Shown here in pieces: positions 26,419 to 52,439 of a stretch of DNA of 64,000 nucleotides (the stretch's first letter is position 1; the number at the start of each line of letters is the position of its first letter). The DNA is from an uncultured Verrucomicrobiota bacterium (lineage in GTDB: Bacteria; Verrucomicrobiota; Verrucomicrobiia; Palsa-1439; CAYGDP01). Both the position numbers and the translations under genes were made by a program. The DNA lies in NCBI GenBank assembly GCA_964348665.1, contig CAYGDP010000001.1:66767-130766 (forward strand), given 5' to 3'. The notes under the pieces were generated by a model. The model saw only the letters and a list, made by a program, of their open reading frames with translations, made no database searches and was not told where the DNA came from.

Positions 26419-26420
26419 AT

Positions 26421-26497: not shown

Positions 26498-26510
26498 AAA
26501 AAATTCGTGT

Positions 26511-30231: not shown

Positions 30232-32147
30232 TTCATTCTGAACTTATCACACTCGCTTTGATCCAGTGTGTTCCGTCCCGGCCCGCCTTCGAACATAATT
30301 CTGTGAGTCGGTTTTCCAGAGGCAGAACCGTAATGGGGAAGCCCCTTTTGGTGTCCAAACTCATGCGCCCAATCCGAGGGTGGAGCATTTTGGTCCAGAA
30401 TACTCTGTTTCGCCAAAGTGCAACCATCAATTGCGGGATCGTATTGAAGACCGCACGCCTGTATATCTGTAACAATCATGATATTTGCTTTGCTGGCTAG
30501 GAAGACATCTGCTTGTTCATTTACCCTCTTGTCTGCATTTATGTCTTTGCCATCAACGATTTGCGGGGGAAAATCGCCGACGATGTCATGCCCGTCATTC
30601 AACTCCCCGAATGTTCCGACACTTCCCTTGAGCTTGAGCACGACGCAGCAACGCACATCGTCCTCAATGTCCTTGCGTTTCAGTAGGAGTGTTGCCCTCG
30701 CAAACTTGTCAATGACGTAGTTATTTAATATCTTTTGGTCATTGTTGAACCCGATCTGGAAAGACTTTTTATGAATGGCGACGGTGACTTCATGGGTAAC
30801 CACCTCCACCGCCTCAAACTCGCTGGTCGAAACACCTTGCTCAGTTCCATCGAGCCGCAGGTTGCCATCATCCGCCCAGAAAGTTACCTTATACGTTCCC
30901 TTAACCGGCAACTGTGTTTTGAAGGTCACTCCCTTGCCGCTCTTCACGGGCACGATCGTCACAATGGTCTGGCCGCCCATGGTCTTGGTCTCTTTCCGCT
31001 CCAGTTTCCAAGCCACCCCCGGTGGATTGTCCACTTCCGGGTCGGTGGATACGCGAGCACGGATGGAATCCCCGACGCAGAAATTCTCCGGATCGGAAGA
31101 ATAGATCTCGTCGTCTTCGCCCACAGCTTTCACCTCTGGCTCGACGAGCTTGAAAACCGCGAGATTCACGCCATCTTCACGGTGGGTCGTTGCTTCCTGT
31201 GCGAAGGGAACCGAAATGGCCGGTCTCAAAATCTGCATCGTCAAATTTCCCGTACCCCCGCTGATCCCTTCCACATAGACGGGGTTGGGCAAGTGACCTC
31301 GGCCAACCTCGAACGTTTGGTTTGTAATGTCATTCCCACCAACGGCTGCGTCCCAGACACGGATATTACCCAGCGCACGCAGACGGATCTGCCATGGTCC
31401 CTCGAAATCCACCGTCCTGAGCACCGGCAGAGCGGCCCCATAATCAATATACTGATAACTCGATGGAAATTGAGTCGGCAAAGTCATCTTCGCGGCAGCT
31501 CGCAGACCCACGCCCAAGAGCTTGCCGGGGCCATCCTCCACCAGATCATCAGTGGCCGGATCCAAAACCCCGTCATTGTTGGAGTCGGTATCCAGACTGA
31601 CCACGAATACCTCCAATGATGCGCTGCTCACCGAGTTGCTGGCCGTCACCGTGATGGTTTGGCCCGGCTCGGCGTTTGGAAAGGCAATGACAGCGTTGCC
31701 TATAATCTGGAGGGAACAGTCAGGCTCGACGGGAATAGGCGGTGGAAGATGTGACCAAACAACGGGTTCATGGTAGCTAACAGAAAGAAACTGATTGATC
31801 GCGTTGAAAGCGCCAGATCCGCCGTGCGGCGTAATAAAAACGGGGTTTATCGTGGAGGGAGTTGGGATGAAATATTCCCAGATGCCGATGATTGGCGGCC
31901 CCGGACAGGTCGCCTCAGCCGCGGCTGCCGTTTCGGATGGCGGCGGGTCTACGCCGGGGACGGTGGTCGCACCACCGCAGCAAATCCCGCTGCTGGGACT
32001 GGTACCAATACTGATCAACGTCGCCGCCATCACAACGGCACAAAGTAACACCACCAACACTTTTGCGCTAGTCCTGCCGCCTTGGTTATTGGTTTGCATG
32101 TATTCCCTCCTTGTGGGGCAACTATCTAGCCACATTGCGACCACCAT
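30228..32147 (-). CDS. secreted zinc-metalloprotease-like protein (HEFGH motif)
   Basis: Signal peptide. Long beta-rich N-terminal region. C-terminal HExxH (AHEFGHQKGLPH). ATGA-coupled to the downstream HEAT-repeat gene. Confidence 0.5.
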   Translation of the reverse strand: MVVAMWLDSCPTRREYMQTNNQGGRTSAKVLVVLLCAVVMAATLISIGTSPSSGICCGGATTVPGVDPPPSETAAAAEATCPGPPIIGIWEYFIPTPSTINPVFITPHGGSGAFNAINQFLSVSYHEPVVWSHLPPPIPVEPDCSLQIIGNAVIAFPNAEPGQTITVTASNSVSSASLEVFVVSLDTDSNNDGVLDPATDDLVEDGPGKLLGVGLRAAAKMTLPTQFPSSYQYIDYGAALPVLRTVDFEGPWQIRLRALGNIRVWDAAVGGNDITNQTFEVGRGHLPNPVYVEGISGGTGNLTMQILRPAISVPFAQEATTHREDGVNLAVFKLVEPEVKAVGEDDEIYSSDPENFCVGDSIRARVSTDPEVDNPPGVAWKLERKETKTMGGQTIVTIVPVKSGKGVTFKTQLPVKGTYKVTFWADDGNLRLDGTEQGVSTSEFEAVEVVTHEVTVAIHKKSFQIGFNNDQKILNNYVIDKFARATLLLKRKDIEDDVRCCVVLKLKGSVGTFGELNDGHDIVGDFPPQIVDGKDINADKRVNEQADVFLASKANIMIVTDIQACGLQYDPAIDGCTLAKQSILDQNAPPSDWAHEFGHQKGLPHYGSASGKPTHRIMFEGGPGRNTLDQSECDKFRMK

Positions 32148-32195: not shown

Positions 32196-32810
32196 TCATT
32201 CAGCAGAGAGACATTCCCACTTTTCAATTGTGGCCTTCGAACCAAGCACGGTGACATAGCTAAAAATCCCAACCTTCTTTGCCCTGAAGATTAACACTTT
32301 CCCATCGGTCATCCCTTCTTGATTTGGATGACCGACAAGCAATACTTTTGTCTGCCCACGATCAGATGGTCCCGGTTGAACCAACAAGCCGTCCGAAATT
32401 ACCTGAATGACTTCGCCGTACCCGTTAAAAATCCCGACCTTCTCATCTTCTTTGCGCTGAGCTTCACGCCTGGCGTTTACCAAATTTCGCGCCTCAACCT
32501 CTTTGCGCTTTTGTTCGGCCTCGACTTTCGCTTTTGCCGAAGCTTCACGGACTTGCTTGGGATCGAGCCGTAAATCATTCTTCAAAACCGTGTCAGTCAG
32601 AGAATCCAATGGGATATACGCCAGCCCCTTTTTATGGCTCATGGAAACTGTCAAGCCATCAACCCGAATCCACTTGGCGTTTTCGTAGACCTTGCCATCA
32701 ATAATCATCCGCTTTCCTGCTGGTTCGGCAGACAGACCGGATGCGCAAAACACCGCTGAACCTATCATCGCCAATATTAGCTTGTGCATTTTCCCTCCCC
32801 TATGGTTCAA
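32196..32810 (-). CDS. secreted hypothetical protein with a charged helical segment
   Basis: Signal peptide MHKLILAMIGSAVFCASGLSA. KAKVEAEQKRKEVEARNLVNARREAQRKEDEK coiled coil. Confidence 0.4.
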   Translation of the reverse strand: MNHRGGKMHKLILAMIGSAVFCASGLSAEPAGKRMIIDGKVYENAKWIRVDGLTVSMSHKKGLAYIPLDSLTDTVLKNDLRLDPKQVREASAKAKVEAEQKRKEVEARNLVNARREAQRKEDEKVGIFNGYGEVIQVISDGLLVQPGPSDRGQTKVLLVGHPNQEGMTDGKVLIFRAKKVGIFSYVTVLGSKATIEKWECLSAE

Positions 32811-33489
32811 ACTTCGTGATCACCGGGCAAGCCTTTAGGATGTCCGCCTTGTCCAGCGTGATCGGTTTATATTTTTCGTTCCGGCTGGTCAAAACGATCT
32901 TGCCAGCGCGCTCGTGGTAGATCTTCAACATCGTCTCTCGCGCTTTCGTCTTCACCACCGCCGCCTGCCCAGAGTGCGGGCGCAAATCCGTCGCGATGAT
33001 CACCCGATCCCCCTCGTTGTAACTCGGCTCCATGCTGTCGCCCTTCACGATGATCCCCACCAAATCATCGCGGCTGCTCTCCACTTTGCGATACTCATCA
33101 ATATGCCAACCCGGATCCGAAAAAATCTCGCCCTGCCCGGCTTGCGCCCACGTTACAACCGGAACCAATTGAACCTTCTTCGATATTAAATAATGCCCGC
33201 GCGATTCGCGGATCACGGATGACGGAAGCGAATCGGTATCGTGTGGGGCTGCTACCTCGCGGGGATTTTTCCCACTCAATAACCATTCTTCCCGGACGCC
33301 GAGCGCCAGCGAAATTCCACCCAAGATGCTGGGATGATAGCTTTTCCCCTTTTCGACGCGCGCGATCGTCTGTTGTTTTTGACTAACCAGCTCTGCGAGC
33401 TTTGCCTGCGAAAGACCCGCGGCCATACGAGCCTCGGCGGCGCGCCCGCCGATTTGCTCTCGAAGCGCCTGTGAAATGCCCCTACTCAT
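32800..33489 (-). CDS. prophage repressor: XRE-type HTH fused to an S24 LexA-like autopeptidase domain
   Basis: N-terminal HTH (LSQAKLAELVSQKQQTIARVEKG). C-terminal GDSMEP (S24 Ser motif) with the downstream Lys (ETMLKIY). Divergent from the Cro/Ner-like gene. Confidence 0.8.
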   Translation of the reverse strand: MSRGISQALREQIGGRAAEARMAAGLSQAKLAELVSQKQQTIARVEKGKSYHPSILGGISLALGVREEWLLSGKNPREVAAPHDTDSLPSSVIRESRGHYLISKKVQLVPVVTWAQAGQGEIFSDPGWHIDEYRKVESSRDDLVGIIVKGDSMEPSYNEGDRVIIATDLRPHSGQAAVVKTKARETMLKIYHERAGKIVLTSRNEKYKPITLDKADILKACPVITKFEP

Positions 33490-34340: not shown

Positions 34341-34586
34341 ATGAGTTACTTAACCGAGATTTTAGATCGCCGCCTGCTACCGATCAGCACGGCAAATCGC
34401 AATCTGAAAACCGCCCTGTATCGGCTGCGAAAGCTTCGTGGTATTCGCGCGACGATGCGGCGCGGCGCATCATTTGGCGTCGCCTGTAGCCTGAATCAGA
34501 CGAATCGCCGCAACGCGCTGATCTGGATCAGGGCTTACAACAAATTCGGCATGGCTGGCCTCGTCGGAAAACATGGAGGAAAATGA
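34341..34586 (+). CDS. small HTH protein (IS3-OrfA/HTH_28-like)
   Basis: ACSLNQTNRRNALIWIRAYNKFGMAGLV resembles the transposase-type HTH. Ribosome-binding site AAGGAGA. ATGA-coupled downstream. Confidence 0.4.
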   Translation: MSYLTEILDRRLLPISTANRNLKTALYRLRKLRGIRATMRRGASFGVACSLNQTNRRNALIWIRAYNKFGMAGLVGKHGGK

Positions 34587-35395
34587 ACGCCAACGGAAAA
34601 ATTCAACACATCAACCCAGAACTTCTTGTTCCGCATCCTTTGACTGAACTCGTACCGATGACGGCGGAGGATGAATCCCAAAATGTCGCGTTAATCGAGA
34701 GCATTCGGGAGCGCGGAATTGACCAGGCAATCTTGGCGGACGCCAGCTATAAAATCCTCGATGGCCGCCATCGGCATCGCGCGGCGAAGACTCTAAAACT
34801 CGCCACTGTGCCGGTTGTAATCCGAGAGGAAACCGAGGCCGCGAGCATCATCTTGGATTCCCTTCTTGCCCGCCGTCACTTTACCAAAAGCGCGCTGGCC
34901 TACATCGCGTTACCGCTCTACGACAAAGCCGCCGCTGAGGGGCGACAGCGTAGGACGGGAGCTAAGCCGAGTGGCTCGGCTTTCGCTATGAAAGCGAGTG
35001 ATTTTTCAACCCGTTTAGGCATCTCAAAAGACACCTTTGAACAAGCTCGCGATGTTCGAGAATTGTTCGCCAAACGCCCTGATTTGAAGGCTGAATTTGA
35101 GCCCAAAATTTTTAGCGGGGATATGAGCCTCTGGAATGTTCGTAGCGCAGCGGGCGGTCGCGACAAAACCAAAGGCGTCGCCCGCAAAGACAGCCAGCGC
35201 ACCTTTGAAGATCTGGTCGGCGATTGGATCGAGCTAGGCGTTCATCGCCTCAAACATTGGGAGAAAATCGGCAGTAAAGCCGATCGGCTCAAACTAACCC
35301 ACAAAGCTGCCGATGCGCTTGTTGGCGCTTTCCCCGACGAATGGTTGCCGGCATTGGAACGCGCGATCCGTGCGCGAAAAGGAGAGACGCGATGA
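34583..35395 (+). CDS. ParB-like nuclease domain protein
   Basis: ILDGRHRHRAA (ParB/sulfiredoxin DGxHR motif). Confidence 0.6.
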   Translation: MNANGKIQHINPELLVPHPLTELVPMTAEDESQNVALIESIRERGIDQAILADASYKILDGRHRHRAAKTLKLATVPVVIREETEAASIILDSLLARRHFTKSALAYIALPLYDKAAAEGRQRRTGAKPSGSAFAMKASDFSTRLGISKDTFEQARDVRELFAKRPDLKAEFEPKIFSGDMSLWNVRSAAGGRDKTKGVARKDSQRTFEDLVGDWIELGVHRLKHWEKIGSKADRLKLTHKAADALVGAFPDEWLPALERAIRARKGETR

Positions 35396-37194
35396 CTGAT
35401 ACACAAACCCGCGAACTGACGCGACGCAATCAAATCGTGTGCGCCGCCATCCCTCTGTTGAATCAGGGCGGCAGCTATGCAGCCGTCGCGCGCAGGCTCG
35501 GCGAGAATAAAGTCTCGCTATATCGGTGGGTATCGGTATTTCGAAAAGGCGGCGATGCGGCGCTTATCCCTCAATCCACCAACAGCGGGCGCAAAGCGGA
35601 CTTCAATCTGACCGACGACGAAGCCGCCGCTCTGCGATATTGGCGGCTGGTGCGCGGCAGCCTGGCCTCGGCGATTCCCGATTTCACGCAGTCGCGCGAG
35701 TGCCGCCCCGAGACGCGCGCGAAAATCCTCGCCATCCAGGACCGTGCCGCGCGCGATCGCCGTATTCCCAACTGGCCGATGTCGCTCCGGCGCGCGGGTC
35801 ATGTAACCGCCGATGATGAAGCCTTGTTCCGCGGCTGCAAACATTTTCAGGAGGTCGAGTTTTGCCAGCGGCGCGGCAACTTCATCGTGGATGAAGCGGG
35901 CAACCAGATCGAACTCGCCCCAAACACGATTTGGGAATCGGACGATATGTCCGTCAACGAACCGTTTTCCTACGTGGATGCCGACACCGGCGAGACCAAA
36001 CTCGGTCGCCAAACTCTTTGGACGCAGGATGTCTATAGCGCCAAATGGATCGGCACGACTCCATTGGGCCGCGCCAAGGACGCCTATCGCGTCGAGGATA
36101 TCGCTGACCACATTTTCAACTGCGTGCTTCAATTCGGGCTGCCGACCATCTGGCGTATCGAGCGCGGCGTGTGGGACAACAACTGGGTGGACGGCTTTGA
36201 GCTGCCCGATGGCTCCCGTTGGGGCGGCCTCGATGCGCTGATGCGCATCCAAAAGGTTTTCAAATCACGCGGCAAAGGCGGCATCGAATCTAACTTCAAT
36301 CTCCTCCAAACCATCAACGCCCACAAATCCACCAGCATTGGTCGCAGCCGGAGCGAGTTCGAGGCCGCCACAAAACTTTTCCTGTCCGCCCAAAAAGGAA
36401 ACACGGAGGCCGCCGCGAAATTCTGGAACATTGCCGAGTGTGCCGATGGCCTGCTCGAAACCGCTCGCGCGGCGGATGCCCGCGCCAAACAACGCCGTGC
36501 CTTCGGACGCGATGTCGTAGTTCCCAACGATCTTTACGCCGCGGCAACCAAACGGGAAATTCCAGCCGATCAATTGTGGCGATTCTGCCCCATCAAGCGC
36601 TCGGCCACTGTGCGCGGAGGTCACGTCGAGGTCAGCGTCAATCATTATCCCCTGCCGTTCCGATTTCGCGTCAACGGCGTTGAGGATCTGCACCTAGAAC
36701 AAGGCTATGCGGTGTTGATTGCGTTCCATCCCGGGCGCGCCCACGAGGGCTGCCACGTTTTCAGCGCCGAGACCGGCAGCCGGAACCGATTCGGTCTCAA
36801 ATTTAGCGAGAAGATTTTGCTCGCCCCGATGGCCGAGGATGCCCCGCAGATTTCCATGAGCCGTGATGAGCAGCAATTTCTGGCCCGGCGCAAAGCCAAC
36901 GCGGCGGCGCGCACCGAGTTCCGCGCCATCGTAGCGGCAGGTACGCGCGGCCGACGCGAATCCATCGCGCGCGATTCCTACGGCAACACGCAGCGGATCG
37001 AGACCCAACAGATTTCGGGGGCGAGCGGGCCGCAAACTGACCGTTTGCAAAATGCGCCCACAAGTGCCGCCCCCGTTATTTCCGCGCCACGCCGCCGCGC
37101 GACGCCAGAATACGACGAGGCGGAGACGCGCAATCGCATCAAGGAAAACGAAGACGCCCTGCGCGAGCAAGGTGTCGTGATCGAAGAATCGTAA
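35392..37194 (+). CDS. Mu-type DDE transposase (MuA-like)
   Basis: 600 aa. N-terminal HTH region, central DDE core (WESDDMS...), Mu-transposase-like C-terminal domain. Follows the repressor and Cro/Ner-like gene, as in Mu. Confidence 0.7.
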   Translation: MTDTQTRELTRRNQIVCAAIPLLNQGGSYAAVARRLGENKVSLYRWVSVFRKGGDAALIPQSTNSGRKADFNLTDDEAAALRYWRLVRGSLASAIPDFTQSRECRPETRAKILAIQDRAARDRRIPNWPMSLRRAGHVTADDEALFRGCKHFQEVEFCQRRGNFIVDEAGNQIELAPNTIWESDDMSVNEPFSYVDADTGETKLGRQTLWTQDVYSAKWIGTTPLGRAKDAYRVEDIADHIFNCVLQFGLPTIWRIERGVWDNNWVDGFELPDGSRWGGLDALMRIQKVFKSRGKGGIESNFNLLQTINAHKSTSIGRSRSEFEAATKLFLSAQKGNTEAAAKFWNIAECADGLLETARAADARAKQRRAFGRDVVVPNDLYAAATKREIPADQLWRFCPIKRSATVRGGHVEVSVNHYPLPFRFRVNGVEDLHLEQGYAVLIAFHPGRAHEGCHVFSAETGSRNRFGLKFSEKILLAPMAEDAPQISMSRDEQQFLARRKANAAARTEFRAIVAAGTRGRRESIARDSYGNTQRIETQQISGASGPQTDRLQNAPTSAAPVISAPRRRATPEYDEAETRNRIKENEDALREQGVVIEES

Positions 37195-37213: not shown

Positions 37214-38419
37214 ATGAGCAAGACAACTGAAGCAGTGAAGATGGGCTGGTGGATGCCGACCAAAATGGCTGGCGTTCGCGCTGTACATCATTACGCGACG
37301 GCAGATCGCGGAGCGGCCTGCGGGAAATGGATTTACCACGGCGATGGCGGTGATCTAGTGGCAGACCAACCCGATAAAGCCTGCCCTAATTGCCTAACAG
37401 CATTGAGTCGCGATAAAAAACCGAACCTCCCAATGCCGCCCACCGAAGGCGAGTATGGCGATCTCGATACCGAGATCCGGGAGTTGACACAATTCATCTA
37501 CGCTTATCAAACGACCGAAGACCTCAGCGACAACGCGTTGGTGAAAAAGTTCCCCGGACTCGGCAGCACGAAGACGTGGACAAAGTTCCTGTCTGGAAAC
37601 ATCGTCGAACTCAACGTCCCTAAATGGATCGTCGAGTATCGCCAAGTTCGCGAGCAGATTGTCGCGCTCCAAACGCGCAGCAAAGACAACGAACCGATTT
37701 ACGACGATCTCAGCGGCTTCATGCGGTTACGCGGCGCCTTCACCGAGGCGCTCCGCGAAGACGGTAACAATCGCCTGATCATCGTTCAAGGACCATCGGG
37801 CAGCGGCAAGACGACGGCGGTGAAGTTGTTGGCGCAGAAATTTGGGCGGCGGATTATTTTCTGCGAGGCCGACGAGACTTGGAAAGAATCGCTGCGCGCC
37901 ATGATGGGCGGCATCCTCAACGCCGTCGGCATCGAGCAGACGCCGCTACAACTCCGCGACTGTGAACGCAAAGTCATCGAGCGATTGTCGGCGCCGCGCG
38001 TTTGTCTGGTGATTGACGAAGCCCATCACCTCGGCCCGCGCACGCTGAACCTCGTCAAGACGATCATCAACCAAACGCCAGGCGAAATCATTTTGCTGGC
38101 GATGGACACGCTTCAGGCGCGTCTCGAATCGAGCGCGTATTTCGAGGCAATGCAGTTGGTCCACAACCGTCTGCTCGAACGCATCCGCCTCGACCGCCTC
38201 GAAGCCGACGACGTGGAGAAAATTCTCAAGCGCCGCCTCACGTGGGAAAATGGAGATTTACACAAAGCCGCCACCGCGTTGCGCGATCAAGCCGTGCGGC
38301 GCGGCCATCTGGCCTTCGTCAAACTCGTCGTGCGCCGCGCCGCACGCCTGGCCGATGGCGACCCGATGACACTCGAAGTTTTTGTGAAGGCCATGAGCCA
38401 GACTATTGATAAACGCTAA
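37214..38419 (+). CDS. MuB-like AAA+ transposition ATPase with N-terminal zinc ribbon
   Basis: Walker A GPSGSGKTT, Walker B LVIDEAHHL. N-terminal C-x5-C...CPNC zinc ribbon. Directly downstream of the transposase. Confidence 0.7.
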   Translation: MSKTTEAVKMGWWMPTKMAGVRAVHHYATADRGAACGKWIYHGDGGDLVADQPDKACPNCLTALSRDKKPNLPMPPTEGEYGDLDTEIRELTQFIYAYQTTEDLSDNALVKKFPGLGSTKTWTKFLSGNIVELNVPKWIVEYRQVREQIVALQTRSKDNEPIYDDLSGFMRLRGAFTEALREDGNNRLIIVQGPSGSGKTTAVKLLAQKFGRRIIFCEADETWKESLRAMMGGILNAVGIEQTPLQLRDCERKVIERLSAPRVCLVIDEAHHLGPRTLNLVKTIINQTPGEIILLAMDTLQARLESSAYFEAMQLVHNRLLERIRLDRLEADDVEKILKRRLTWENGDLHKAATALRDQAVRRGHLAFVKLVVRRAARLADGDPMTLEVFVKAMSQTIDKR

Positions 38420-38645: not shown

Positions 38646-39103
38646 ACCCGATCACCGAAACAAATCTCCCGTCCCCCACGCGTGGGCGGGATGAACACGA
38701 CGCAGCGGCGGCGGGGATCGTGCGCCCCGCGCCGCTCGCGTCGCGTCGCCACGCCCGGTGGCGGCGACGTATGATCACGGCGGGCCGCTGCGCCGATTGC
38801 GGCGACGTGCGGAATCTCTATACGATTCATTGCGACGATTGTCAGGATAAGCGGAACCGCTGGCGCCAACGCAACCGCGGTGGCGATGCATGGCAGCCCG
38901 GTGGCCCCGGGCGCCCACCCAAATGGGCTTGCCTCGCCAAAGTCACGCGACAGCGGGACGAAGGCCGGGCGACACTCAAACGACTTTTGCGAGCTGGGCC
39001 GGAGCCAGCCTTTACCTCCTTGAAGGCCACGGTGGACGCCAGTTCATCGGCAACGACTCAGCTCGCTTCTAATCAACCAAAACAAGAAAGGAAAGCAGCA
39101 TGA
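38642..39103 (+). CDS. hypothetical early protein with CxxC...CxxC zinc finger
   Basis: CADCG...CDDCQ. Arg-rich. Confidence 0.3.
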   Translation: MNPITETNLPSPTRGRDEHDAAAAGIVRPAPLASRRHARWRRRMITAGRCADCGDVRNLYTIHCDDCQDKRNRWRQRNRGGDAWQPGGPGRPPKWACLAKVTRQRDEGRATLKRLLRAGPEPAFTSLKATVDASSSATTQLASNQPKQERKAA

Positions 39104-39651
39104 ACAAGACACGCATCACAATCAAACCCGTCGAGCAACGCGAGGACATGGAGGCATGTCTAGGCGAGCTGGCGAGACATACCATCCAGCGCGACGGACT
39201 CAACGCGGAGATGGAGTTGCGAATCAACGAGATCCGCAAAAAGTACGAAGGCAAAATCGAATCTTTCAGCGAGAAGATCGAAGTCTGCACCGAAGTCCTC
39301 AAAGATTGGGCGGAACGCCATCCCGATCAATTCGGGAAAAAGAAATCCATCGAGACAGTCCACGGCTCTGTGGGATTCCGATTCGGCCAACCGCAAGTCA
39401 AGACCAAGCTCAAGCTGACCTGGGCGATCGTGCTCGAAAAAATCAAGGCGCTATCCCTCAACGCAAAGTACGTCCGCGTCAAAGAAGAAGCCAACAAGGA
39501 AGCCATCCTCGCCGACCGCGACAAGAAACTCAATGGACCGCACGGCGAATACACGATCGAAGATCTCGGCGTCCGCATTGTTCAGGACGAAGCTTTCTTC
39601 ATCGAAATCAAACGGGAGCCAGTCGGCGAACCCGTCGCCAAAGCCGCATAA
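39100..39651 (+). CDS. gam: host-nuclease inhibitor Gam (Mu Gam family)
   Basis: C-terminal KEEANKEAILADRDKKLNGPHGEYTIEDLGVRIVQDEAFFIEIKRE aligns with Mu Gam KQEINKEAILLEPKAVAGV...IEDFSIIPFEQE. Confidence 0.6.
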   Translation: MNKTRITIKPVEQREDMEACLGELARHTIQRDGLNAEMELRINEIRKKYEGKIESFSEKIEVCTEVLKDWAERHPDQFGKKKSIETVHGSVGFRFGQPQVKTKLKLTWAIVLEKIKALSLNAKYVRVKEEANKEAILADRDKKLNGPHGEYTIEDLGVRIVQDEAFFIEIKREPVGEPVAKAA

Positions 39652-42168: not shown

Positions 42169-42807
42169 ATGGCAGAGACCAAACAACGCATTCCGTTGGC
42201 CGAAGCGCGCAGGCTCGCCGCGAAAATCCTCAATGTGCTCTCGCCATTCTGCGAACGCATCGAGATCGCGGGTAGCATCCGGCGCGCGCGGCCAACGGTT
42301 GGCGATGTTGATCTCGTGGCTCTGCCCAAGGATGTCGCCGGACTAAAAGCCCGGTGCGCGCAGAATTGTACGGTCATCACAGACGGCGATCAAAATTTCG
42401 GCGTGCAACTTGGCGGGAGCGGCACACAGATAGATATATGGCTGGCGCAATACATTGAGGCCGGGCTATTCACGCCGCGCACCCACAATTTCGGCAGCTT
42501 GTTGGTCTGTCGCACCGGCAGCAAGGACCACAACATACATTTGTGTGAGTACGCCAAAAAACTCGGCCTTAAATGGTCGCCATACACCGGCGTCTTTCGC
42601 GGCAGCGATCTTATCGCCAGCGAGACCGAAATCGACATCTTTAAGGCGCTCGGTCTGCCATACATCAAACCCGAATCGCGCGAACTCGAATGGGGCTTGC
42701 CGGTATGGTCGCGTCAGGCGCAGGAATCAAAGGCGACAATGGAAAACATCGAGCGAATCGGGCGGCAAGCCAAAGCCAACATCACAAAGGAACAGAGTGA
42801 AAATTAA
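42169..42807 (+). CDS. PolX (DNA polymerase beta)-like nucleotidyltransferase
   Basis: IAGSIRRARPTVGDVDLVAL matches the Pol-beta palm motif GSxRRGxxxxGDhDhLh. Confidence 0.5.
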   Translation: MAETKQRIPLAEARRLAAKILNVLSPFCERIEIAGSIRRARPTVGDVDLVALPKDVAGLKARCAQNCTVITDGDQNFGVQLGGSGTQIDIWLAQYIEAGLFTPRTHNFGSLLVCRTGSKDHNIHLCEYAKKLGLKWSPYTGVFRGSDLIASETEIDIFKALGLPYIKPESRELEWGLPVWSRQAQESKATMENIERIGRQAKANITKEQSEN

Positions 42808-43017: not shown

Positions 43018-43251
43018 ATGAGCGATATTCAACGCGAAAAAATGCTGAACCAATCCAAACGCCTTGCGGTTGCCTATGGCATCCCGAACGAATTTCTAAT
43101 GAGTGTTTTCGACGCATCGGGATTTACGGTCTCGATGATCAAGTACGACGGTAAACAGGTGGTCATCATGGGTGACGAAAAATCCGCCCGCGAAGTCATC
43201 AAGGGAATTGGGATGATGGCAGACGCACTCGAATCCAAGAAAGCGGAATGA
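43018..43251 (+). CDS. hypothetical protein
   Basis: 77 aa. Confidence 0.3.
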   Translation: MSDIQREKMLNQSKRLAVAYGIPNEFLMSVFDASGFTVSMIKYDGKQVVIMGDEKSAREVIKGIGMMADALESKKAE

Positions 43252-43955
43252 ACATCGAGGAGAAAATCAAAAAATTGTTACGGATCGAGCGCGGCGGATC
43301 TCCCGCCGAAATCGCAACCGCTTTGAGGATGGCCCAGAAGCTTGCCGATCAACACGATATAGACCTCGCGCAACTCAATCCCAACGAGGAACAAACCCAC
43401 AAAACAATCGCCCACATCAAAATAGCGATCGGCTTACGCAAAGGCTATAGCCATAGTTGGGGCGCGACAATTCTCAAGAATTATTTCGACGTGGACGTTT
43501 TCTTCAGCCAACGACGAAGTTCATTCGCTTTCGATGGAATGATTTTGCCGGGCGGAATCGAATATGTCCTCGTCGTGGTTGGTTTGCCGCACCGCATCGA
43601 GCTTGCCAGGCACGTATTCATCTTCGTGATCCGCGAGTTCGGAGTTGCCTGGCGTACTCGTCGCGGGCGCTGTCGCAACAACAGGAATTTCATTTTCGGA
43701 ATGGCTTCGGGCATTATGGCGCAACTCGACGAGGACCGCGCCGCCAAACAAACTATGTCGCAACACAACGCGTTGGTCTGCTCGCGGCAAAATTACATCG
43801 CCAAAAACTTCGGCGAGCTGAAACAGAAAAAACATCGCGCCGTAAAAGTCACCGCCGCCACCATGCGCGGCTACGCCATCGGTCGCGAAACGCGGATCCA
43901 TCTGCCAATGGAATCCAACGACGAACCCAAACTCCAACTCACGGAGGGACGATGA
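43248..43955 (+). CDS. DUF2786-like protein
   Basis: N-terminal IEEKIKKLLRIERGGSPAEIATALRMAQKLADQHDIDLAQL is typical of DUF2786. Confidence 0.4.
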   Translation: MNIEEKIKKLLRIERGGSPAEIATALRMAQKLADQHDIDLAQLNPNEEQTHKTIAHIKIAIGLRKGYSHSWGATILKNYFDVDVFFSQRRSSFAFDGMILPGGIEYVLVVVGLPHRIELARHVFIFVIREFGVAWRTRRGRCRNNRNFIFGMASGIMAQLDEDRAAKQTMSQHNALVCSRQNYIAKNFGELKQKKHRAVKVTAATMRGYAIGRETRIHLPMESNDEPKLQLTEGR

Positions 43956-44203
43956 GCGAATCAAAAACAGGCTGGTGGAACCCGACGCCTTTTCGGGACA
44001 ACCCACGATTCCATTATGTAACTGATGATGGCCGAACGCTTTGCGGCAAATGGGCATACATTGGCATGGGCGATGTCGAGGAGGGACGCGACGGTCACTC
44101 CGAAAATTGTGTCGCCTGCAAAAAGAAAAAGCTGGCGCTGAATGCCCGCGCCAAAAACCCCCGCCACGTGGAACTACCGGTCAAGGAATTAACCAATGGC
44201 TGA
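43952..44203 (+). CDS. zinc-ribbon protein paralogous to the MuB N-terminal domain
   Basis: TGWWNPTPF...DGRTLCGKWAYIG...ENCVACKKK versus MuB MGWWMPTKM...RGAACGKWIYHGD...KACPNC. Confidence 0.4.
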   Translation: MSESKTGWWNPTPFRDNPRFHYVTDDGRTLCGKWAYIGMGDVEEGRDGHSENCVACKKKKLALNARAKNPRHVELPVKELTNG

Positions 44204-45767
44204 ATTTCTTTTCGGACCTGTGCCGCACGAAGAGGCGATCAAGTTCATCGCCGATAAACCCGTTGTCTCGCGCGAGGTTTTCAACAAGCTTCTACCCGAG
44301 CTGAAGGCGCGGGCGTTTACCATCAGCGGCATCGAGGGCGCGAACGCGATGCAGAGTATCCGCGACAAGATCGCCGAGCTGCCCGCAGGCGGCGATTGGG
44401 ACACGATCAAGCAACAAATCGCCGATGACCTCGCCAATGAAGGTCTATTCGATAATCCTGATGCCGACGAGGAATCGCGTGCGGCCAGCGCCGAGGCCGC
44501 CGAGCGCCGTGCCGAAATTCTTTTGCGCACCCACGGATTCCAAGCCTACAGCGCCGCGCGATTCAACGTGATGAATCGGCAGAAAGATGCCCTGCCGTTT
44601 TGGAAATATCAAACCGTTGGTGATGAACATGTGCGCGATGAACACGCCGCGCTCGATGGCGTCATTCTTCCCGCCGATTCGCCCTTTTGGAACGATCATT
44701 ATCCGCCATGGGATTGGGGCTGCCGATGTTTGGTCGTGCCGCTCGATGCCGAGGAAGTCGCCGAGATTCGCGAGGCGGAAAAGGATTTGGATGGCGACAA
44801 GCGATCGCTACTCGAAGGCGAGTTACAGCGCCAGCTAGAAGTCAACGGGCGAATCGCGCGCGGTCCTACGCAAGTCGTTGACGTGCGCAGTCCGCGCGAC
44901 AAAGGCGTGGAAGCGCCATTTGTTTGGCAGCCAGGCAATTTGCGCGTGCCGATCCAAAAGCTTCGCGGCCAATGGGATGCCCCTGTTTTTGATAGCTTCG
45001 AGCAGTGGGCTAAACGTCAGATCGTAAATGAACGCGATCAAACCGTTTGGAATTGGCTGAATCAAAAGCAACGCCCGCCGCTGGCAACGCGCGATTCATT
45101 GCGCAGCGAGGATGTGAAGCGTAAACATCGCGGGGCAATCTCCCAGGGAGTATCGCGCTCGGACAAGATCACATTGGAAGATGGTACTGTCGCTGTCCGA
45201 AAACCAATCGAAGGTTTGGGGTACGAAGATTTTTTGGAGGGGCCTCTATTTCATAAAGATTCCAGCAGAAACGGGGCTGCCTTTCAAATCGCCGCCGATG
45301 ATATTTCGCGCGCGCTGGGCTGGGAGGTTGTGGCGCCAGCATCCATCAATAAGGATGGATCTGAATTACGAACGGCTTTTACCGAAGGTGTGGCACTCCA
45401 TTCGTCACCGCGATCTGAAATCGATCGTCAACAATGGGAGCGGGTGGCGTTCATTGATTATGTAATCGGACAGCAGGATGGCCATAGCGGAAATTACTTG
45501 GTCACTGCGGATGGCAAGTTGGTTGGGTTCGATCTGAATATCGCCGGTGGTGAGCGATTCCGCAGTACGGCGTTGGAAGAGATCAGTCGTGAGACAGACG
45601 AGGGTGGCGTCGCTAAATTTAGCAGGAAAACCGTGAATGAGGTCGAGCGCAAGCTTGACAAGATCGCATTTCGAGAGGAAGTTTCTACGGAGCTTCAGGA
45701 CAAACTTTTGGGGCGGATCAAGGAGTTTTTAGATTCCGATGGTGAGATAAACTGGGAGTTCAAATGA
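44196..45767 (+). CDS. Mu F-like minor head protein (gp30) fused to a C-terminal PI3K/PI4K-like kinase motif
   Basis: Phage_Mu_F motif KYQTVGDEHVRDEHAALDGVI. The C-terminal VIGQQDGHSGNYLVTADGKLVGFDLN matches the lipid-kinase catalytic loop GDRHxxN and the DFG-like activation segment. Confidence 0.65.
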   Translation: MAEFLFGPVPHEEAIKFIADKPVVSREVFNKLLPELKARAFTISGIEGANAMQSIRDKIAELPAGGDWDTIKQQIADDLANEGLFDNPDADEESRAASAEAAERRAEILLRTHGFQAYSAARFNVMNRQKDALPFWKYQTVGDEHVRDEHAALDGVILPADSPFWNDHYPPWDWGCRCLVVPLDAEEVAEIREAEKDLDGDKRSLLEGELQRQLEVNGRIARGPTQVVDVRSPRDKGVEAPFVWQPGNLRVPIQKLRGQWDAPVFDSFEQWAKRQIVNERDQTVWNWLNQKQRPPLATRDSLRSEDVKRKHRGAISQGVSRSDKITLEDGTVAVRKPIEGLGYEDFLEGPLFHKDSSRNGAAFQIAADDISRALGWEVVAPASINKDGSELRTAFTEGVALHSSPRSEIDRQQWERVAFIDYVIGQQDGHSGNYLVTADGKLVGFDLNIAGGERFRSTALEEISRETDEGGVAKFSRKTVNEVERKLDKIAFREEVSTELQDKLLGRIKEFLDSDGEINWEFK

Positions 45768-46041: not shown

Positions 46042-46527
46042 ATGAGCATCCAAATTAAAGACACGTTGAGTCCGCACTTGGCGGCGATGGCGCGCCGGTT
46101 TCGAGACCGCAAACCAATTCTCGAAGCGATGGGCGCGTCATTGGTGGCCACTACCGCGCGCTCGTTTCGGGAGGCGAATCTTCGCGCGGCGCCGTGGCCG
46201 CCCAAGCGAGACGGTAGCCCAGCCACTCTCTATAAGAATGGTCCGCTGAAACAATCCATCCGCATCACGTCCGTGTCGAATGATTCTGTGACGGTCGGCA
46301 GCGATCGCAAATACGCCGCGATCCATCAACTCGGTGGCGTGATACGACCGAAGAGTGCGAAGGTGTTGCGGTTCATCAGCGGCGGTCAAGTTTTCTTTCG
46401 CAAAAAAGTCACGATCCCGGCCCGGCCGTTTTTTCCCTTCATCGGAAATCGCATGACGGATTTCGCACAGCGGCGCATCGAGGCGGCCGTAAAGGCGAAA
46501 GTCGCCGCGCTGATGCGCCGTCCCTGA
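46042..46527 (+). CDS. virion morphogenesis protein (Mu G-like, Phage_tail_S family)
   Basis: KYAAIHQLGG motif. Position after F. Confidence 0.55.
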   Translation: MSIQIKDTLSPHLAAMARRFRDRKPILEAMGASLVATTARSFREANLRAAPWPPKRDGSPATLYKNGPLKQSIRITSVSNDSVTVGSDRKYAAIHQLGGVIRPKSAKVLRFISGGQVFFRKKVTIPARPFFPFIGNRMTDFAQRRIEAAVKAKVAALMRRP

Positions 46528-46599: not shown

Positions 46600-47484
46600 T
46601 TGCGCGTAGTCTCGCGCGCGATGAACGACAAACAGAGCGACAAAGTTTTGATGGCGAGTGCGATTCATGCAAACCCTTTTTCCGTCAAGCTCACCGTCGT
46701 TCATCCCGCCGACGACAAGAAATCCTTTGAGATGGTCTCCGCCATAGTTGATACCGGCGCGACCCTCTCGGTTCTTCCAAAAAGGCTTCTTGAAGATATT
46801 GGTATCACCGCGCGCCGGACGGTCGAGATGTTGACGGCCGCTGGCGAAACCATAAAACGGAAAGTCGGCAGCGCGATTCTTCGCACTGGGGATCACGAAG
46901 CGACTGTGGATGTCGTCTTTGGTGAAGAGAACGATTTGACCCTTTTGGGCAACAACGCCCTGGTCGGTATGGCGGTAAAGGTGGATCCGGCCAAACAGCA
47001 ACTTGTTGCGGCGCTTCACACGCTCGCAGCAAAAAACACGGAGAATCCCATGGATCACAAGACCCTTTTGATCGGCCTGCTCAAACTCAATGCCAACGCG
47101 ACGGACGCGGAGATCGAAGCGGCCGTCAAAGCCGCGAATCTCGGCGACGTAAAGGTTTTTGCCGGCGCGGTTGAAGTCGCCCTCAAGCCGCTCACCGACA
47201 AGATCGCCGCACTGGAAGCGCGCGACGATCAACGTGAGCGCGAAGTCATTCTCGCCGCGGCGCTGGCCGAGGGCAAAGTCGTGCCCGACGAGGCTTCGAA
47301 GTTGCCAATGGCTGACTTCAAGGCGCTGGTCGGTAAACTCCCCGTCACTGTGCCGGTCGGTCGCCGCACGCCGGAGCACGTAAAGGCGCTGGCATCAACG
47401 CTCGGCGCAACCGGCCTGAGTGCAGAGGTGCAAAAGAATTTGGGAATCTCAGATGAGGCATGGAAAAAGCACGCACAGAATTAA
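46600..47484 (+). CDS. head protease-scaffold protein: retropepsin-like aspartic protease (DTG) N-terminal domain plus Mu I-like scaffold C-terminus
   Basis: AIVDTGATLSVLP (aspartyl protease D-T/S-G-A signature), ...GNNALVG. C-terminal helical region (TDAEIEAAVKAANL...IAALEAR). Position between G and the capsid gene. Confidence 0.5.
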   Translation: MRVVSRAMNDKQSDKVLMASAIHANPFSVKLTVVHPADDKKSFEMVSAIVDTGATLSVLPKRLLEDIGITARRTVEMLTAAGETIKRKVGSAILRTGDHEATVDVVFGEENDLTLLGNNALVGMAVKVDPAKQQLVAALHTLAAKNTENPMDHKTLLIGLLKLNANATDAEIEAAVKAANLGDVKVFAGAVEVALKPLTDKIAALEARDDQREREVILAAALAEGKVVPDEASKLPMADFKALVGKLPVTVPVGRRTPEHVKALASTLGATGLSAEVQKNLGISDEAWKKHAQN

Positions 47485-47513: not shown

Positions 47514-48095
47514 ATGGCTGCTGCAACCGCTGACATCAACACACCCGAGCGCGCAGGCGAAGTCGTAAATCTACCTGTCGCCGCTTCAACAAAAATTTAC
47601 GCGGGCACGATGGTCGCCATTGACGCCAGCGGAAACGCAAAGCCAGCAGCCGATACGGCTGGCTTGACCGTCATTGGCCGCGCTGAGGAGTTCATTGATA
47701 ACTCCAGTGGAGCGGCTGGCGATTTGACGATCAACGTCAAGCGCGGGGTGTTCAAATATAACAATAGCGGCACGAATGCCGTGGATGCCGATGATAAGGC
47801 CAAGGTGTGTTATATCGAGGATGACAATACCGTCCAGGAAGCGATCGGCACGAATGCGATTGTCGCGGGTTTGGTTCTTGAAGTCGCTGACGGCGGAGTT
47901 TGGGTTGACCAAAGCTTGAACGGTGTTCGCGGGACAGTCGTGACGCTCGGTAATGCCGACAACGAAATTGGAGCGTTGGCGATCGGCGGAACATATACTC
48001 AAGCAGAAGTCGTCGCGCTTCGGGACAAGGCCGAAGAACTCGCGGATGATGTCCGCAATATGCACGCCGCCTTGCGGCTGCGCGGTTTAGTGTAA
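47514..48095 (+). CDS. hypothetical head protein (decoration/Z-position)
   Basis: Gly/Ala-rich, beta-type. Sits between the scaffold and the major capsid gene. Confidence 0.3.
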   Translation: MAAATADINTPERAGEVVNLPVAASTKIYAGTMVAIDASGNAKPAADTAGLTVIGRAEEFIDNSSGAAGDLTINVKRGVFKYNNSGTNAVDADDKAKVCYIEDDNTVQEAIGTNAIVAGLVLEVADGGVWVDQSLNGVRGTVVTLGNADNEIGALAIGGTYTQAEVVALRDKAEELADDVRNMHAALRLRGLV

Positions 48096-48123: not shown

Positions 48124-49035
48124 ATGCTTGTCACCAAAGAAAACGTCAAAGAGATCTTCAAAGGGTATCGGGTCATCTTCGAGGAAGCCTTCCAGGGAAT
48201 CCGCGAGTTGACATGGCGGCGCATCGCCATGGAGACCCAATCTTCTGGCGATAGTGAAGACTACGCCTTTCTCTCCGCCATACCCGGTGTGCGGGAATTG
48301 ATTGGTGAGATTCAAGTCAAGAACTTGAGCACGCAGAAATTTACCATCACCAATAAGGAGTGGGAAGTCACGATCGGCCTGCCAGTCAAGCTCGTCGAGC
48401 GCGATACCTACGGCTTGTTGAAGCCGCAGATTCAAATGATGGCGCAGGTCACAGCGCAACATCCCGATGACTTGGTTTCAGATCTACTGATCAATGGCTT
48501 CACGACCAAGTGCTATACGGGCAAAAATTTCTTCGATACCGACCACGAGCCAGTCAAAGGCGGCACGAAGTTCACCAATAAGGACACGAAGAAATTGTCC
48601 GCCGGCAACTGGGAGGCCGCGCGCGCCGCGCTGCGTGGTATCAAGAACAGCGAAGGTCGCCCGATGAATCTTGGTCGGGACTTGGCTTTGTGTGTGAGTC
48701 CTGAGAACGAAGGCTTGGCGAAGCGCATTCTTGAGGCCGAGTTTCAAAATGGCGGCGACTCGAATGTCAACAAAGGTACAGGAAAGGTGCTTGTACTGCC
48801 GAAACTTGGCGGGGCAACCCACAAGGAAAAATGGTTTGTGATCGAGGCTGGCTACCCTGTCCGCGCGTTGATCGTCCAGATCGAGCGGCAGCCGACAGCG
48901 CTCGCTGTTACCGACCCGGAAGACAGCTACGTCGTGCTGAAAAAACAATTCATCAACCAAGGCTACTACCGCGGTAATGCAGGCTACGGATTGCCTGAGT
49001 TCGCCTGGGGTTCAGACGGCACGACCGGGCCGTAA
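48124..49035 (+). CDS. major capsid protein (Mu gpT-like)
   Basis: MLVTKENVKEIF...RRIAMETQSSGDSEDYAFLSAIP aligns with Mu T MIVTPA...NKIAMVVNSSTRSNTYGWLGKFP. Confidence 0.7.
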   Translation: MLVTKENVKEIFKGYRVIFEEAFQGIRELTWRRIAMETQSSGDSEDYAFLSAIPGVRELIGEIQVKNLSTQKFTITNKEWEVTIGLPVKLVERDTYGLLKPQIQMMAQVTAQHPDDLVSDLLINGFTTKCYTGKNFFDTDHEPVKGGTKFTNKDTKKLSAGNWEAARAALRGIKNSEGRPMNLGRDLALCVSPENEGLAKRILEAEFQNGGDSNVNKGTGKVLVLPKLGGATHKEKWFVIEAGYPVRALIVQIERQPTALAVTDPEDSYVVLKKQFINQGYYRGNAGYGLPEFAWGSDGTTGP

Positions 49036-49124: not shown

Positions 49125-49550
49125 ATGGCCTACGTCGAACAAAGCGACATCTACAGCGAGATTCCGCAGACGCTCGCCACCCAAGCCCTCGACGATAATG
49201 AGGACGGCGCCGTGGACGCATCCGTCTGGACGACGATCCAGACACAGGTGCAAAATGAAATTGACGGTTTGATGGCGGGACGGTATGCCGTGCCGTTTGT
49301 CTCCCCAATCCCGCCGCTGATCCTGCACGCCGCGTTGATTTTCGCCTGCGAAAAAGTGATCAGCCGACGCCTGGGTAAAGGCGAAAAAAATCCATTTACC
49401 AAACAGGCCGACGAGCTGCGCGGTTTGCTCAAAAAAATTGCGATCGGCGAGGCCGCGCTGGCTGTGGATATTCCGCGCGCCAAACCGCCGATCTCGATCA
49501 TTTCCGAAGACTCCCGACTGCATAGCGCGTCGGGCTACGCGATGGTGTAA
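49125..49550 (+). CDS. Mu gp36-like protein (DUF1320)
   Basis: LDDNEDGAVD...EIDGLMAGRYAVPF pattern typical of DUF1320. Confidence 0.5.
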   Translation: MAYVEQSDIYSEIPQTLATQALDDNEDGAVDASVWTTIQTQVQNEIDGLMAGRYAVPFVSPIPPLILHAALIFACEKVISRRLGKGEKNPFTKQADELRGLLKKIAIGEAALAVDIPRAKPPISIISEDSRLHSASGYAMV

Positions 49551-50910: not shown

Positions 50911-51093
50911 TTGGTGCTTATTGATACGGTGTGCAGTGAATATGGTTGGTCGCTGGAGGTCGTCATGGAGATGCCGCTGGCAATAGTATTTGCGCTATAT
51001 GCAGCAATCAACGAGCGGTACGGCAATAAGCCCAGGGGGCTTTCGTACACACAAGCGGAATTAGTGGAAATATTTACAGGTGATCCACCATGA
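50911..51093 (+). CDS. small ORF preceding the tape measure (possible chaperone frameshift partner)
   Basis: 60 aa, ATGA-coupled to the tape-measure gene. Confidence 0.25.
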   Translation: MVLIDTVCSEYGWSLEVVMEMPLAIVFALYAAINERYGNKPRGLSYTQAELVEIFTGDPP

Positions 51094-52439
51094 GCGTGAC
51101 GCTTCAAGCCATCATGCATTTGAGTACGGCGAATTTCACCGCGCCTCTACAGCGCGCGCAGAGCCAGCTACAAAGTTTTGTCGGGCAACTCGCCCCACTC
51201 AGCACGTCAATTGCCACGGCGTTCTCCGTTGGGGCTGTCATCGATTTTGCCAGGAGAATTATCAACACAGGGGACGAAATCGCAAATCTATCTGCGCGGT
51301 TGGGAATTTCGTCGGATTCGTTACAACGCCTCGGTTTTGCGGCGAGCCAATCGGGATCAAGCATGCAAAGCCTGACGGGTGGCATCCAACACTTGATCCG
51401 TAGTATTGCTGATGCGCGCGGGGGATCGGAAGAGACAACTTCCGCCTTCAATCGTTTAGGGATCTCCGCTGAGATGATCCAACAGGCGTCTCCCGAGGAA
51501 ATGTTTCTGGCGATCGCGGATGGACTGGCCCGGTCTGAAAATAAAACCCAAGCCATGGCGGATGTATTCCAGGTTCTTGGTCGTGGCGCGGGAGATTTGA
51601 TTCCGCTTCTACGCGAAGGCCGCGCGGAAATCGAAAGGCTTGGGTCGAGTGCCCCAATTATCAGCGCGGAGAGCATCCAGTCCATAAAGGATGCCAATGA
51701 CGAATTTGAGCGACTTTCTCTCGATCTGAAATCATCATTCGCCCCGGCCGTAGCTGGCGTGGCATCAGTTCTCTCTGATACCGTAAAGGGCTTCAAGGCG
51801 ATAGGAGCTGCAATTGGCGCCTGGTCAATAGCGCCAGAGGTCGGATGGGAGAATGCGATGGTTGGCTTTAACGAGCAGATAAACGAAATTGCAGGGAAAC
51901 CAGCTAAACCCTTCAAAAGCACAACGGAAAGCGCGATGGCCGCTGTCGTCGCGCTTGAAAAACTGAATCGAGAACTTCAGCCAATTCGCGATCGAATCTC
52001 CTCGCTCGATCAACAGATTTCCCTATTCGATGCGACACCAGGGCAGAGGATTGATGCGCTCGATGAAAAACTCGCGTCCCTGCGCGGGCAGCAAAATGTC
52101 GTTGGAAATAAGGAGAGTAAAGAGTTTCTCGAACTGGAAGAAAAAATCAAGCGTGCGCTTCTCGAACGGCTTGAGTTGCAAAAGCAAATCAATTCACAAG
52201 ACACGAGGTTAGAACAGCACGCGGAGGACGTGGTGGACGAACTGACGACCCCATTAAACCAACGCGAACAACGTCAACGAGGTTCGCCCGATGAATTTCA
52301 GAGAGTTGGTCTCTTCATTGGCGGCGGGGCGCGGCCCGAGTTAGATTTGCAACGGCGTACGGCAGCCGCGACTGAGAAAGCTTTACCAATTCTGGAAAAG
52401 ATCGCGGATACGGAAGATCCAAATTTTGGAAATATATAA
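51090..52439 (+). CDS. tail tape-measure-like protein
   Basis: Ala/Gly/Ser-rich helical protein with coiled-coil segments. Position. Confidence 0.45.
   Translation: MSVTLQAIMHLSTANFTAPLQRAQSQLQSFVGQLAPLSTSIATAFSVGAVIDFARRIINTGDEIANLSARLGISSDSLQRLGFAASQSGSSMQSLTGGIQHLIRSIADARGGSEETTSAFNRLGISAEMIQQASPEEMFLAIADGLARSENKTQAMADVFQVLGRGAGDLIPLLREGRAEIERLGSSAPIISAESIQSIKDANDEFERLSLDLKSSFAPAVAGVASVLSDTVKGFKAIGAAIGAWSIAPEVGWENAMVGFNEQINEIAGKPAKPFKSTTESAMAAVVALEKLNRELQPIRDRISSLDQQISLFDATPGQRIDALDEKLASLRGQQNVVGNKESKEFLELEEKIKRALLERLELQKQINSQDTRLEQHAEDVVDELTTPLNQREQRQRGSPDEFQRVGLFIGGGARPELDLQRRTAAATEKALPILEKIADTEDPNFGNI

Follow-up and report, generated by a model that had tools for sequence, protein, structure and literature searches.

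To our knowledge, and in the literature searched, every characterised protease that matures the capsids of tailed phages or herpesviruses is a serine enzyme; as far as we know, the same is true of every earlier described occupant of the prohead protease slot. Within the tailed phages, Liu and Mushegian (J Bacteriol, 2004) are said to have described a non-orthologous displacement of prohead proteases, with the assemblin-like enzymes HK97 gp4 and T4 gp21 on the one side and ClpP/S49-like enzymes on the other. In phage Mu (gpI/gpZ, or gp32/gp33) and in the Burkholderia phage KS10 (gp28/gp29) the corresponding gene lies after F and G and before T, and a Met stands at the boundary between its protease and scaffold parts; the annotation of KS10 nests the scaffold gene gp29 (148 residues) in frame inside the protease gene gp28, and removal of the scaffold is ascribed, as a presumption, to the protease (PMC2628397). 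Here we describe a gene in this position from a Mu-like transposable prophage, located at 46621 to 47484 of a 64,000-nucleotide stretch of contig CAYGDP010000001.1 from an uncultured Verrucomicrobiota bacterium (the whole of this stretch, 64 kb, being the window of the analysis). The locus shares with the Mu and KS10 systems the position of the gene, a homologous scaffold half, the Met at the protease/scaffold boundary, gpT, gp36 and a Mu-type portal, but the Mu-I protease domain of ~175 residues is absent, and an unrelated domain of ~110 residues with a predicted retropepsin fold is found instead. Based on this domain architecture, the intact motifs and the phage context, we lean, if only slightly, towards the view that the gene codes for a chimeric head protease-scaffold, in which a working aspartic prohead protease would be delivered by the scaffold tail.

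On direct reading, the open reading frame (ORF) runs without interruption on the forward strand from TTG 46600 to the stop codon TAA at 47482-47484. Public gene calls place the start at ATG 46621, yielding a protein of 287 residues (P0001) whose numbering is used below, except for the span of the two aspartyl-protease Pfam matches, which refers to the translation from the TTG start. A Shine-Dalgarno-like sequence was looked for upstream of ATG 46621 and not found, and a scan for promoters and terminators around the gene returned nothing above background. The parts of the gene are the following:

46621..47484, + strand: the complete chimeric gpI-position gene, 287 residues, with other in-frame starts at TTG 46600 and ATG 46651
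46678..47010, + strand: retropepsin-like (clan AA) aspartic protease domain, residues ~20-130, by Pfam, AlphaFold2, Foldseek and the family hidden Markov model (HMM)
46750..46758, + strand: catalytic-type motif D44-T45-G46 (GAT ACC GGC) in IVDTGA, by direct reading and the family alignment
46942..46950, + strand: second retropepsin hallmark, hydrophobic-hydrophobic-Gly, as L108-L109-G110 in LLGNNALVG, by the family alignment
47011..47049, + strand: 13-residue interdomain linker AALHTLAAKNTEN-P, by the structural model and the start of Mu-I homology only beyond it
47040..47052, + strand: GGAG (47040-47043), six nucleotides and an internal ATG at 47050, from which a nested product of the scaffold alone (gpZ equivalent) may start
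47050..47484, + strand: scaffold half, 144 residues, all-helical, with a long helix at residues 177-216, by PF10123, phrog_328, the homologous protein P0004 and AlphaFold2

Both ends of this protein had been characterised from the letters alone in an earlier note, as a retropepsin-like DTG domain followed by a scaffold-like C-terminus, and profile searches bear out the two assignments. The N-terminal domain (hereafter N-domain) exceeds the gathering thresholds of two aspartyl-protease families, PF13975 (gag-asp_proteas, 39.3 bits against 28.2) and PF13650 (Asp_protease_2, 35.6 bits against 24.3), in each case over residues 46-121 of the TTG-start translation, and falls slightly below the cut-off of PF00077 RVP (20.4 bits against 20.7). 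The stretch AIVDTGATLSVLP, which contains D44-T45-G46, is present in the protein as the note had it, and so is the downstream GNNALVG, which lies inside LLGNNALVG; L108-L109-G110 of the latter is the counterpart of the IIG/LLG of retroviral proteases. In an alignment of 116 homologues the D, T and G of the DTG motif are invariant, as is G110, and L108 and L109 are at least 97% conserved. The assignment lies far beyond a DTG occurring by chance, and neither of the outcomes that the note had named as refuting its reading was observed, these being a lack of aspartyl-protease HMM matches and a DTG that varies among homologues.

An AlphaFold2 model of residues 1-143, built on the 116-sequence alignment, has a mean predicted local distance difference test score (pLDDT) of 88.4, with a core above 94, and shows an all-beta fold plus two short helices, with a helix at residues 111-116 following L108-L109-G110. 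The best matches to this model in the PDB, as found with Foldseek, are the proteases of human immunodeficiency virus 1 (HIV-1), feline immunodeficiency virus (FIV) and xenotropic murine leukaemia virus-related virus (XMRV), with a probability of 1.0 and template modelling (TM) scores, normalised to the target, of 0.64-0.77. The model of the full-length protein (pLDDT 85.8) separates the beta domain (residues 21-130) from an all-helical tail (146-286), which includes a 40-residue helix and is scaffold-like, by a linker at ~131-145 that lacks secondary structure and has a pLDDT of ~62. This linker, which reads AALHTLAAKNTENP and is followed by MDH, is a candidate autoprocessing region. At the level of sequence the resemblance to solved structures is faint: a search with the single protein returned nothing, and the family profile found only weak matches to the proteases of human T-lymphotropic virus 1 (HTLV-1) and foamy virus and to the RVP domains of DDI1. 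The N-domain has in common with the retroviral protease (MEROPS A2) the single-lobe fold, the DTGA and the hydrophobic-hydrophobic-Gly motif, but the two are only 14-20% identical, and where the retroviral enzyme is fused to Gag, the N-domain is fused to the scaffold of a phage whose capsid is of the HK97 lineage. Nothing points to a shared ancestry with retroviruses, the nearest relatives of the N-domain being bacterial chromosomal proteins.

These relatives form a large family of standalone proteins. An exhaustive phmmer search with the N-domain against 1.84 billion representative sequences gave 1175 matches at E<=1e-3, 74 of them at E<=1e-10; below 1e-30 it recovered P0001 alone, with the remaining matches 33-46% identical, and among the matches listed most are 105-200 residues long. 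With the family profile at least 3733 proteins were recovered, the best 120 of which are all standalone and annotated as 'predicted aspartyl protease'. Among the matches listed, the longer proteins carry tandem protease domains, a fusion to a response-regulator (receiver) domain or tails with no annotation, with no phage domain in any of them. The neighbourhoods of the standalone genes vary, with examples next to PGK and Mrr, a DapB-like gene, a multicopper oxidase, and radical SAM and HepT/MNT genes. Against the family HMM the phage N-domain scores 125 bits (family range 125.5-191 bits), and it retains all six invariant positions; of the 22 columns conserved at 95% or more it agrees with 18. 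Two of the four mismatched columns merely reflect the Met-Gly with which the standalone proteins begin, a third is a change from L to I, and the fourth is the change of E115 to V. As judged from these comparisons, the N-domain is a divergent but undecayed member of the standalone retropepsin-like family. Because all of its relatives share only low identity with it, it was not recently acquired from any sampled genome, and its base composition (GC content 0.536, and 0.615 at third codon positions) is inside the range of the adjacent phage genes. The standalone proteins are its true sequence family, at 35-43% identity and with all invariant residues in common, but they are single-domain proteins of 110-200 residues from varied chromosomal contexts, with no association with phages or scaffolds, whereas the chimeric protein has a 16-residue N-terminal extension and, beyond the domain, 157 residues of linker plus scaffold.

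The C-terminal half is matched by two profiles of the Mu-type protein. PF10123 (Mu-like prophage I protein) scores 28.4 bits against a gathering threshold of 25.2, over profile positions 163-330 only, and positions 1-162, which represent the Mu-I protease domain, find no counterpart in P0001; phrog_328 ('head maturation protease') is matched at positions 147-335 of 339, the scaffold half itself accounting for positions 177-335. It is through this half that the nearest full-length relatives, four in number (P0002-P0005, 324-339 residues), were found, and their N-domains of ~175 residues bear the motifs LDYNHNT and DLSPAIK, are unrelated to that of P0001, and are followed by an invariant Met that begins MDPKKLLL.ILGLADDASD.EIQAA. 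In a BLASTP comparison of P0001 with P0004 the similarity (41% identity, E=2e-23) starts exactly at Met144 of the former and Met176 of the latter, with none detected upstream of this pair. Met144, encoded by ATG 47050, lines up with a Met that is invariant where protease and scaffold meet in P0002-P0005 and other Mu-I proteins. More distant Mu-I genes from IMG/VR have the same layout, with IDYEH.T and YFSPVF ahead of the internal Met and scaffold, such that the canonical Mu-I N-domains, putatively of the serine type named in the note, share conserved His- and Ser-containing motifs of the forms D[YF][NE]H and [LF]SP. All other scaffold relatives recovered with complete N-termini have this canonical N-domain, with no retropepsin HMM match among them. 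Since homology begins at the internal Met, the swapped segment corresponds exactly to the protease domain and the kept segment exactly to the nested scaffold; sequence comparison thus demonstrates that, within a nested protease/scaffold gene, one domain has been exchanged exactly at its boundary. Neither a remnant nor a displaced copy of the Mu-I protease was found when the four Mu-I N-domains were searched by tblastn against the whole 64-kb window. The genes downstream tell the same story of restricted change: relative to their homologues on the related 38-kb contig that encodes P0004 (L006), the decoration-like protein of phrog_1731 is 46% identical and gpT 47% identical end to end, so that only the protease domain differs. 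Taken together, Pfam, BLASTP and the AlphaFold2/Foldseek results uphold the earlier proposal of a gpI-position gene in a Mu-like head module, with its protease domain replaced and its scaffold half kept; the further proposal that the catalytic mechanism was swapped within a conserved gene position is plausible, but reaches beyond this evidence, which comes from a single sequence.

The head module around the chimeric gene has the order F, an ORF of 83 residues, G, the chimeric gene, phrog_1731, gpT and gp36. The prophage features recognised in the window are listed here in order of position:

21715-23241, - strand: Mu-type portal, 508 residues (PF06074, E=2e-61 over residues 62-399)
23234-23944, - strand: nuclease half of the large terminase subunit TerL (Terminase_6C)
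23941-25110, - strand: C5-cytosine methyltransferase-like gene of ~1.2 kb (CFGYGG, PCQPFS, ENV, GNGVVP)
25468-26418, - strand: ATPase half of TerL (Walker A RQAGKST, Walker B DEFG)
32800-33489, - strand: CI-like repressor
34583-35395, + strand: ParB-like protein
35341-37194, + strand: transposase
37214-38419, + strand: MuB-like ATPase
39100-39651, + strand: Gam
44196-45767, + strand: Mu F-like minor head protein (PF04233, E=2e-17)
46042-46527, + strand: Mu G-like virion morphogenesis protein, the upstream neighbour (PF05069, E=9e-15; phrog_26)
47514-48095, + strand: virion structural protein of 193 residues, the downstream neighbour (phrog_1731; no Pfam match)
48124-49035, + strand: major head protein gpT, 303 residues (PF10124, E=4e-62)
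49125-49550, + strand: gp36 adaptor
51090-52439, + strand: tape measure protein

Scans of the prophage ORFs with Pfam and PHROGs detected no other protease family, and neither the N-domain nor these ORFs matched the HK97 S78, T4 S77 or ClpP/S49 serine prohead proteases. The 'protease' labels of phrog_595 and phrog_133 were rejected, as these profiles match only MuF and capsid domains; likewise, a weak tblastn match at 7460-7540 was rejected as a second retropepsin-like gene, being an out-of-frame stretch with no HMM match.

Several other features of the prophage deserve mention. The phrog_1731 protein between the chimeric gene and gpT possibly serves the head as a decoration protein or in an auxiliary role. 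The Mu F-like protein has a kinase-like C-terminal extension of ~220 residues (~300-523) with the motifs DGHSGNYLV and GFDLN and a weak match to the Pfam family PI3_PI4_kinase (E=0.07). The head module is divided: the terminase and portal (21715-28069, - strand) lie left of the repressor, whereas F-G-I-T come after the early genes within 33564-58449 (+ strand). An arrangement of this kind was described in 2008 as unique to the viable phage KS10 (PMC2628397). The layout of L006 is likewise unconventional, its I-decoration-T-gp36 genes directly adjoining the early region. The middle region upstream of the head genes codes for a polymerase-beta-like nucleotidyltransferase (42169-42807, + strand; DNA_pol_B_thumb/palm) and a DUF2786/DUF7168 protein (43248-43955, + strand), and the stretch that separates the terminase arm from the repressor (29383-32147, - strand) contains two large ORFs, one of 639 residues with no Pfam or PHROG match and one of 282 residues with HEAT repeats, which may be moron or defence cargo. 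The methyltransferase-like gene separates the two halves of TerL, whose terminase relatives are very divergent, and its stop codon overlaps the start of the nuclease half. At this site ORFs of 389 and 384 codons (23941-25110 and 23949-25103, - strand) are open in different frames of the same strand, the one having the C5-methyltransferase motifs and the other repeated WPTP-type motifs and a match to phrog_1008 'DNA methyltransferase' (E=1.5e-24); they are possibly a frameshifted gene, a recoded gene or true overlapping genes.

In light of the architecture described above, we posit that a Mu-like transposable phage took up a cellular standalone retropepsin-like gene, which came to stand, in frame, in place of the protease domain of a nested gpI/gpZ gene. 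Two products would then be expressed from the locus, namely a rare full-length fusion from ATG 46621, which has no ribosome-binding site, and an abundant scaffold-only protein from ATG 47050 inside the gene, with GGAG ahead of it. The helical tail common to both would co-assemble with gpT and thereby bring the protease domain into the procapsid. As a retropepsin chain contributes one Asp, or half an active site, activity would need two fusion molecules to pair, which would be favoured only where they are crowded at high local concentration within the shell; the two-aspartate dimer would then form, with activation coming only after assembly, as in Gag-Pro(-Pol). The parallel would extend to the presence of a scarce protease fused to a particle-building protein beside an abundant protease-less form, with the difference that the short form here would come from an internal start and not from frameshifting or readthrough. 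Once active, the enzyme would cut the linker, the scaffold and probably the C-terminal tail of the portal, thereby clearing the head for DNA packaging. The tail of ~109 residues that extends beyond the Pfam domain of the portal is a candidate substrate, in that the last 124 residues of the Mu portal (gp29) are absent from virions, which has been attributed to protease I (PMC11915804). The N-terminus of gpT, where the earlier note had suggested looking for a matching cleavage site, proved not to be an apt place: gpT aligns from its residue 9 to position 2 of the Pfam gpT model and end to end with a homologue of 311 residues, and is not a good candidate substrate because it has no N-terminal propeptide; the N-arm of gpT is also described as intact in the structure of the Mu virion. 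We offer only tentatively, though as a serious possibility, the full form of this proposal, in which an HK97-lineage tailed phage matures its head with a scaffold-fused retropepsin activated by assembly-driven dimerisation, as an independent reinvention of Gag-Pro via the capture of a cellular gene.

A number of observations weigh against the gene encoding a working protease-scaffold, among them its uniqueness. The cluster of P0001 at 90% identity has a single member, and none of the collections searched yielded a second example of the fusion; accordingly, there is no comparative evidence of selection on it. A word-indexed search of 5.8 billion proteins returned, for the full protein, only itself and four canonical Mu-I proteins and, for the N-domain, only one standalone protein of 140 residues in a non-phage context. 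The phmmer search of the 1.84 billion representatives revealed no second fusion, the best 150 of its 1175 matches being without the scaffold tail, and tblastn with the N-domain found no match in 50,697 phage genomes. Only three standalone Gemmatimonadales genes in GTDB genomes and two standalone genes in JGI metagenomes were found, with no fusion in either; IMG/VR, when searched with the full protein, a small N-domain alignment and a scaffold alignment, yielded only canonical Mu-I genes, and Foldseek of the full-length model against BFVD yielded no two-domain match. The only other contig compared is 100% identical over 20.9 kb and is not an independent lineage, from which it follows that all copies are probably one genome. 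As to the enzyme itself, the N-domain reaches 40.5 bits against the NCBIfam model TIGR03698 (clan_AA_DTGF), under its curated cut-off of 57.35, with an alignment that covers profile positions 3-107 of 107; its closest relatives, P0006 and P0007, are likewise under this cut-off (38.4 and 44.3 bits), and the N-domain is related to the TIGR03698 subfamily without being a member of it by the NCBI criterion. The change of E115 to V is non-conservative and affects a family residue that is conserved at 95% or more, and the standalone subfamily is without demonstrated activity or known function, its contexts being heterogeneous. As to expression, the internal Met in the related phage of L006 lacks a Shine-Dalgarno sequence, which makes the GGAG before ATG 47050 weak evidence for a nested start. 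Finally, with regard to the competence of the prophage, TerL is split into ATPase and nuclease ORFs by the methyltransferase gene, and could be a terminase that works in two pieces or else an indication that the prophage is defective; a search for terminal inverted repeats of the prophage gave none that were convincing.

Some of these same points are what would be expected if the chimera were an evolutionary accident in a defective prophage, wherein illegitimate recombination put a fragment of a host gene, by chance in frame, in the place of the protease domain, no particles are made, and the chimera is neutral or only its scaffold is used. In particular, no relatives carry the fusion, the identical second contig gives no sign of its spread, TerL is in two ORFs with the methyltransferase gene between them, the start of the long form is without a Shine-Dalgarno sequence, and recognisable transposon-end repeats were not found. 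However, the junction falls precisely at the domain boundary with the nested scaffold start preserved, and all invariant family residues are intact despite the low identity to relatives, which points to an absence of decay since capture and to no recent donor. Moreover, the flanking head and tail ORFs are all open and tightly packed, the composition of the N-domain is not foreign, and a divided capsid module is also found in KS10, which is viable (PMC2628397). We therefore regard such an accident as unlikely.

Standalone proteins of retropepsin fold are themselves on record in uncultured phages: BFVD has them in the crAss-like phages cr111_1 and ctDAq1, in Siphoviridae sp. ct3o911 and in marine phages, so that finding this fold in a phage is by itself no novelty. 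A weak match of phrog_4921 to the DTG region (E=0.02) was also seen. The occurrence of such proteins in crAss-like and other uncultured phages would be compatible with a second alternative, that the domain is active as an effector cargo packaged in the head, cleaving host or defence proteins either on delivery or in the producing cell, while the scaffold exits unproteolysed as in P22. Phages commonly deliver enzymes fused to head components such as MuF or the portal (PMC5512222), and the MuF of this very prophage carries the kinase-like C-terminal extension. On the other side, the domain fills the canonical protease slot and no other protease was detected that could serve maturation or the release of cargo, and, at the sensitivity of the searches made, neither the 50,697 phage genomes nor IMG/VR yielded relatives of the N-domain. 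We also know of no precedent for the fusion of an effector to a scaffold of the gpI/gpZ type, and consider this alternative distinctly improbable. Least probable of all is that the domain lacks catalysis and serves only to dimerise scaffold chains, as a pseudo-protease of the kind known among RVP domains: retropepsin domains are obligate dimers, the highly conserved E115 is altered to V and the subfamily is without known activity, but D-T-G-A, LLG and the other invariant positions are kept where pseudo-enzymes usually lose catalytic residues, and the phage would remain without a maturation protease.

Returning to the favoured reading, that of a working aspartic prohead protease carried by a scaffold, full-text searches of the literature turned up no phage for which a head-maturation protease of aspartic or retropepsin-like type has been reported. 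Since the replacement of a prohead protease by an unrelated one is an established theme, the locus would follow the known design of a protease joined to a scaffold, but with a catalytic class that is new to it. As in the earlier displacements among tailed phages, the slot beside the scaffold and major capsid genes has been refilled by an unrelated protease domain; unlike in those displacements, where the known occupants are serine proteases, the domain here is of the aspartic type. If it indeed works, it would be the first aspartic enzyme in the head maturation of tailed phages, and the protease module of these phages would be interchangeable across catalytic classes. It would furthermore offer a compact bacterial model of assembly-triggered retropepsin activation, and would provide the first concrete role and substrate context for the large bacterial retropepsin-like family, with its at least 3733 members.

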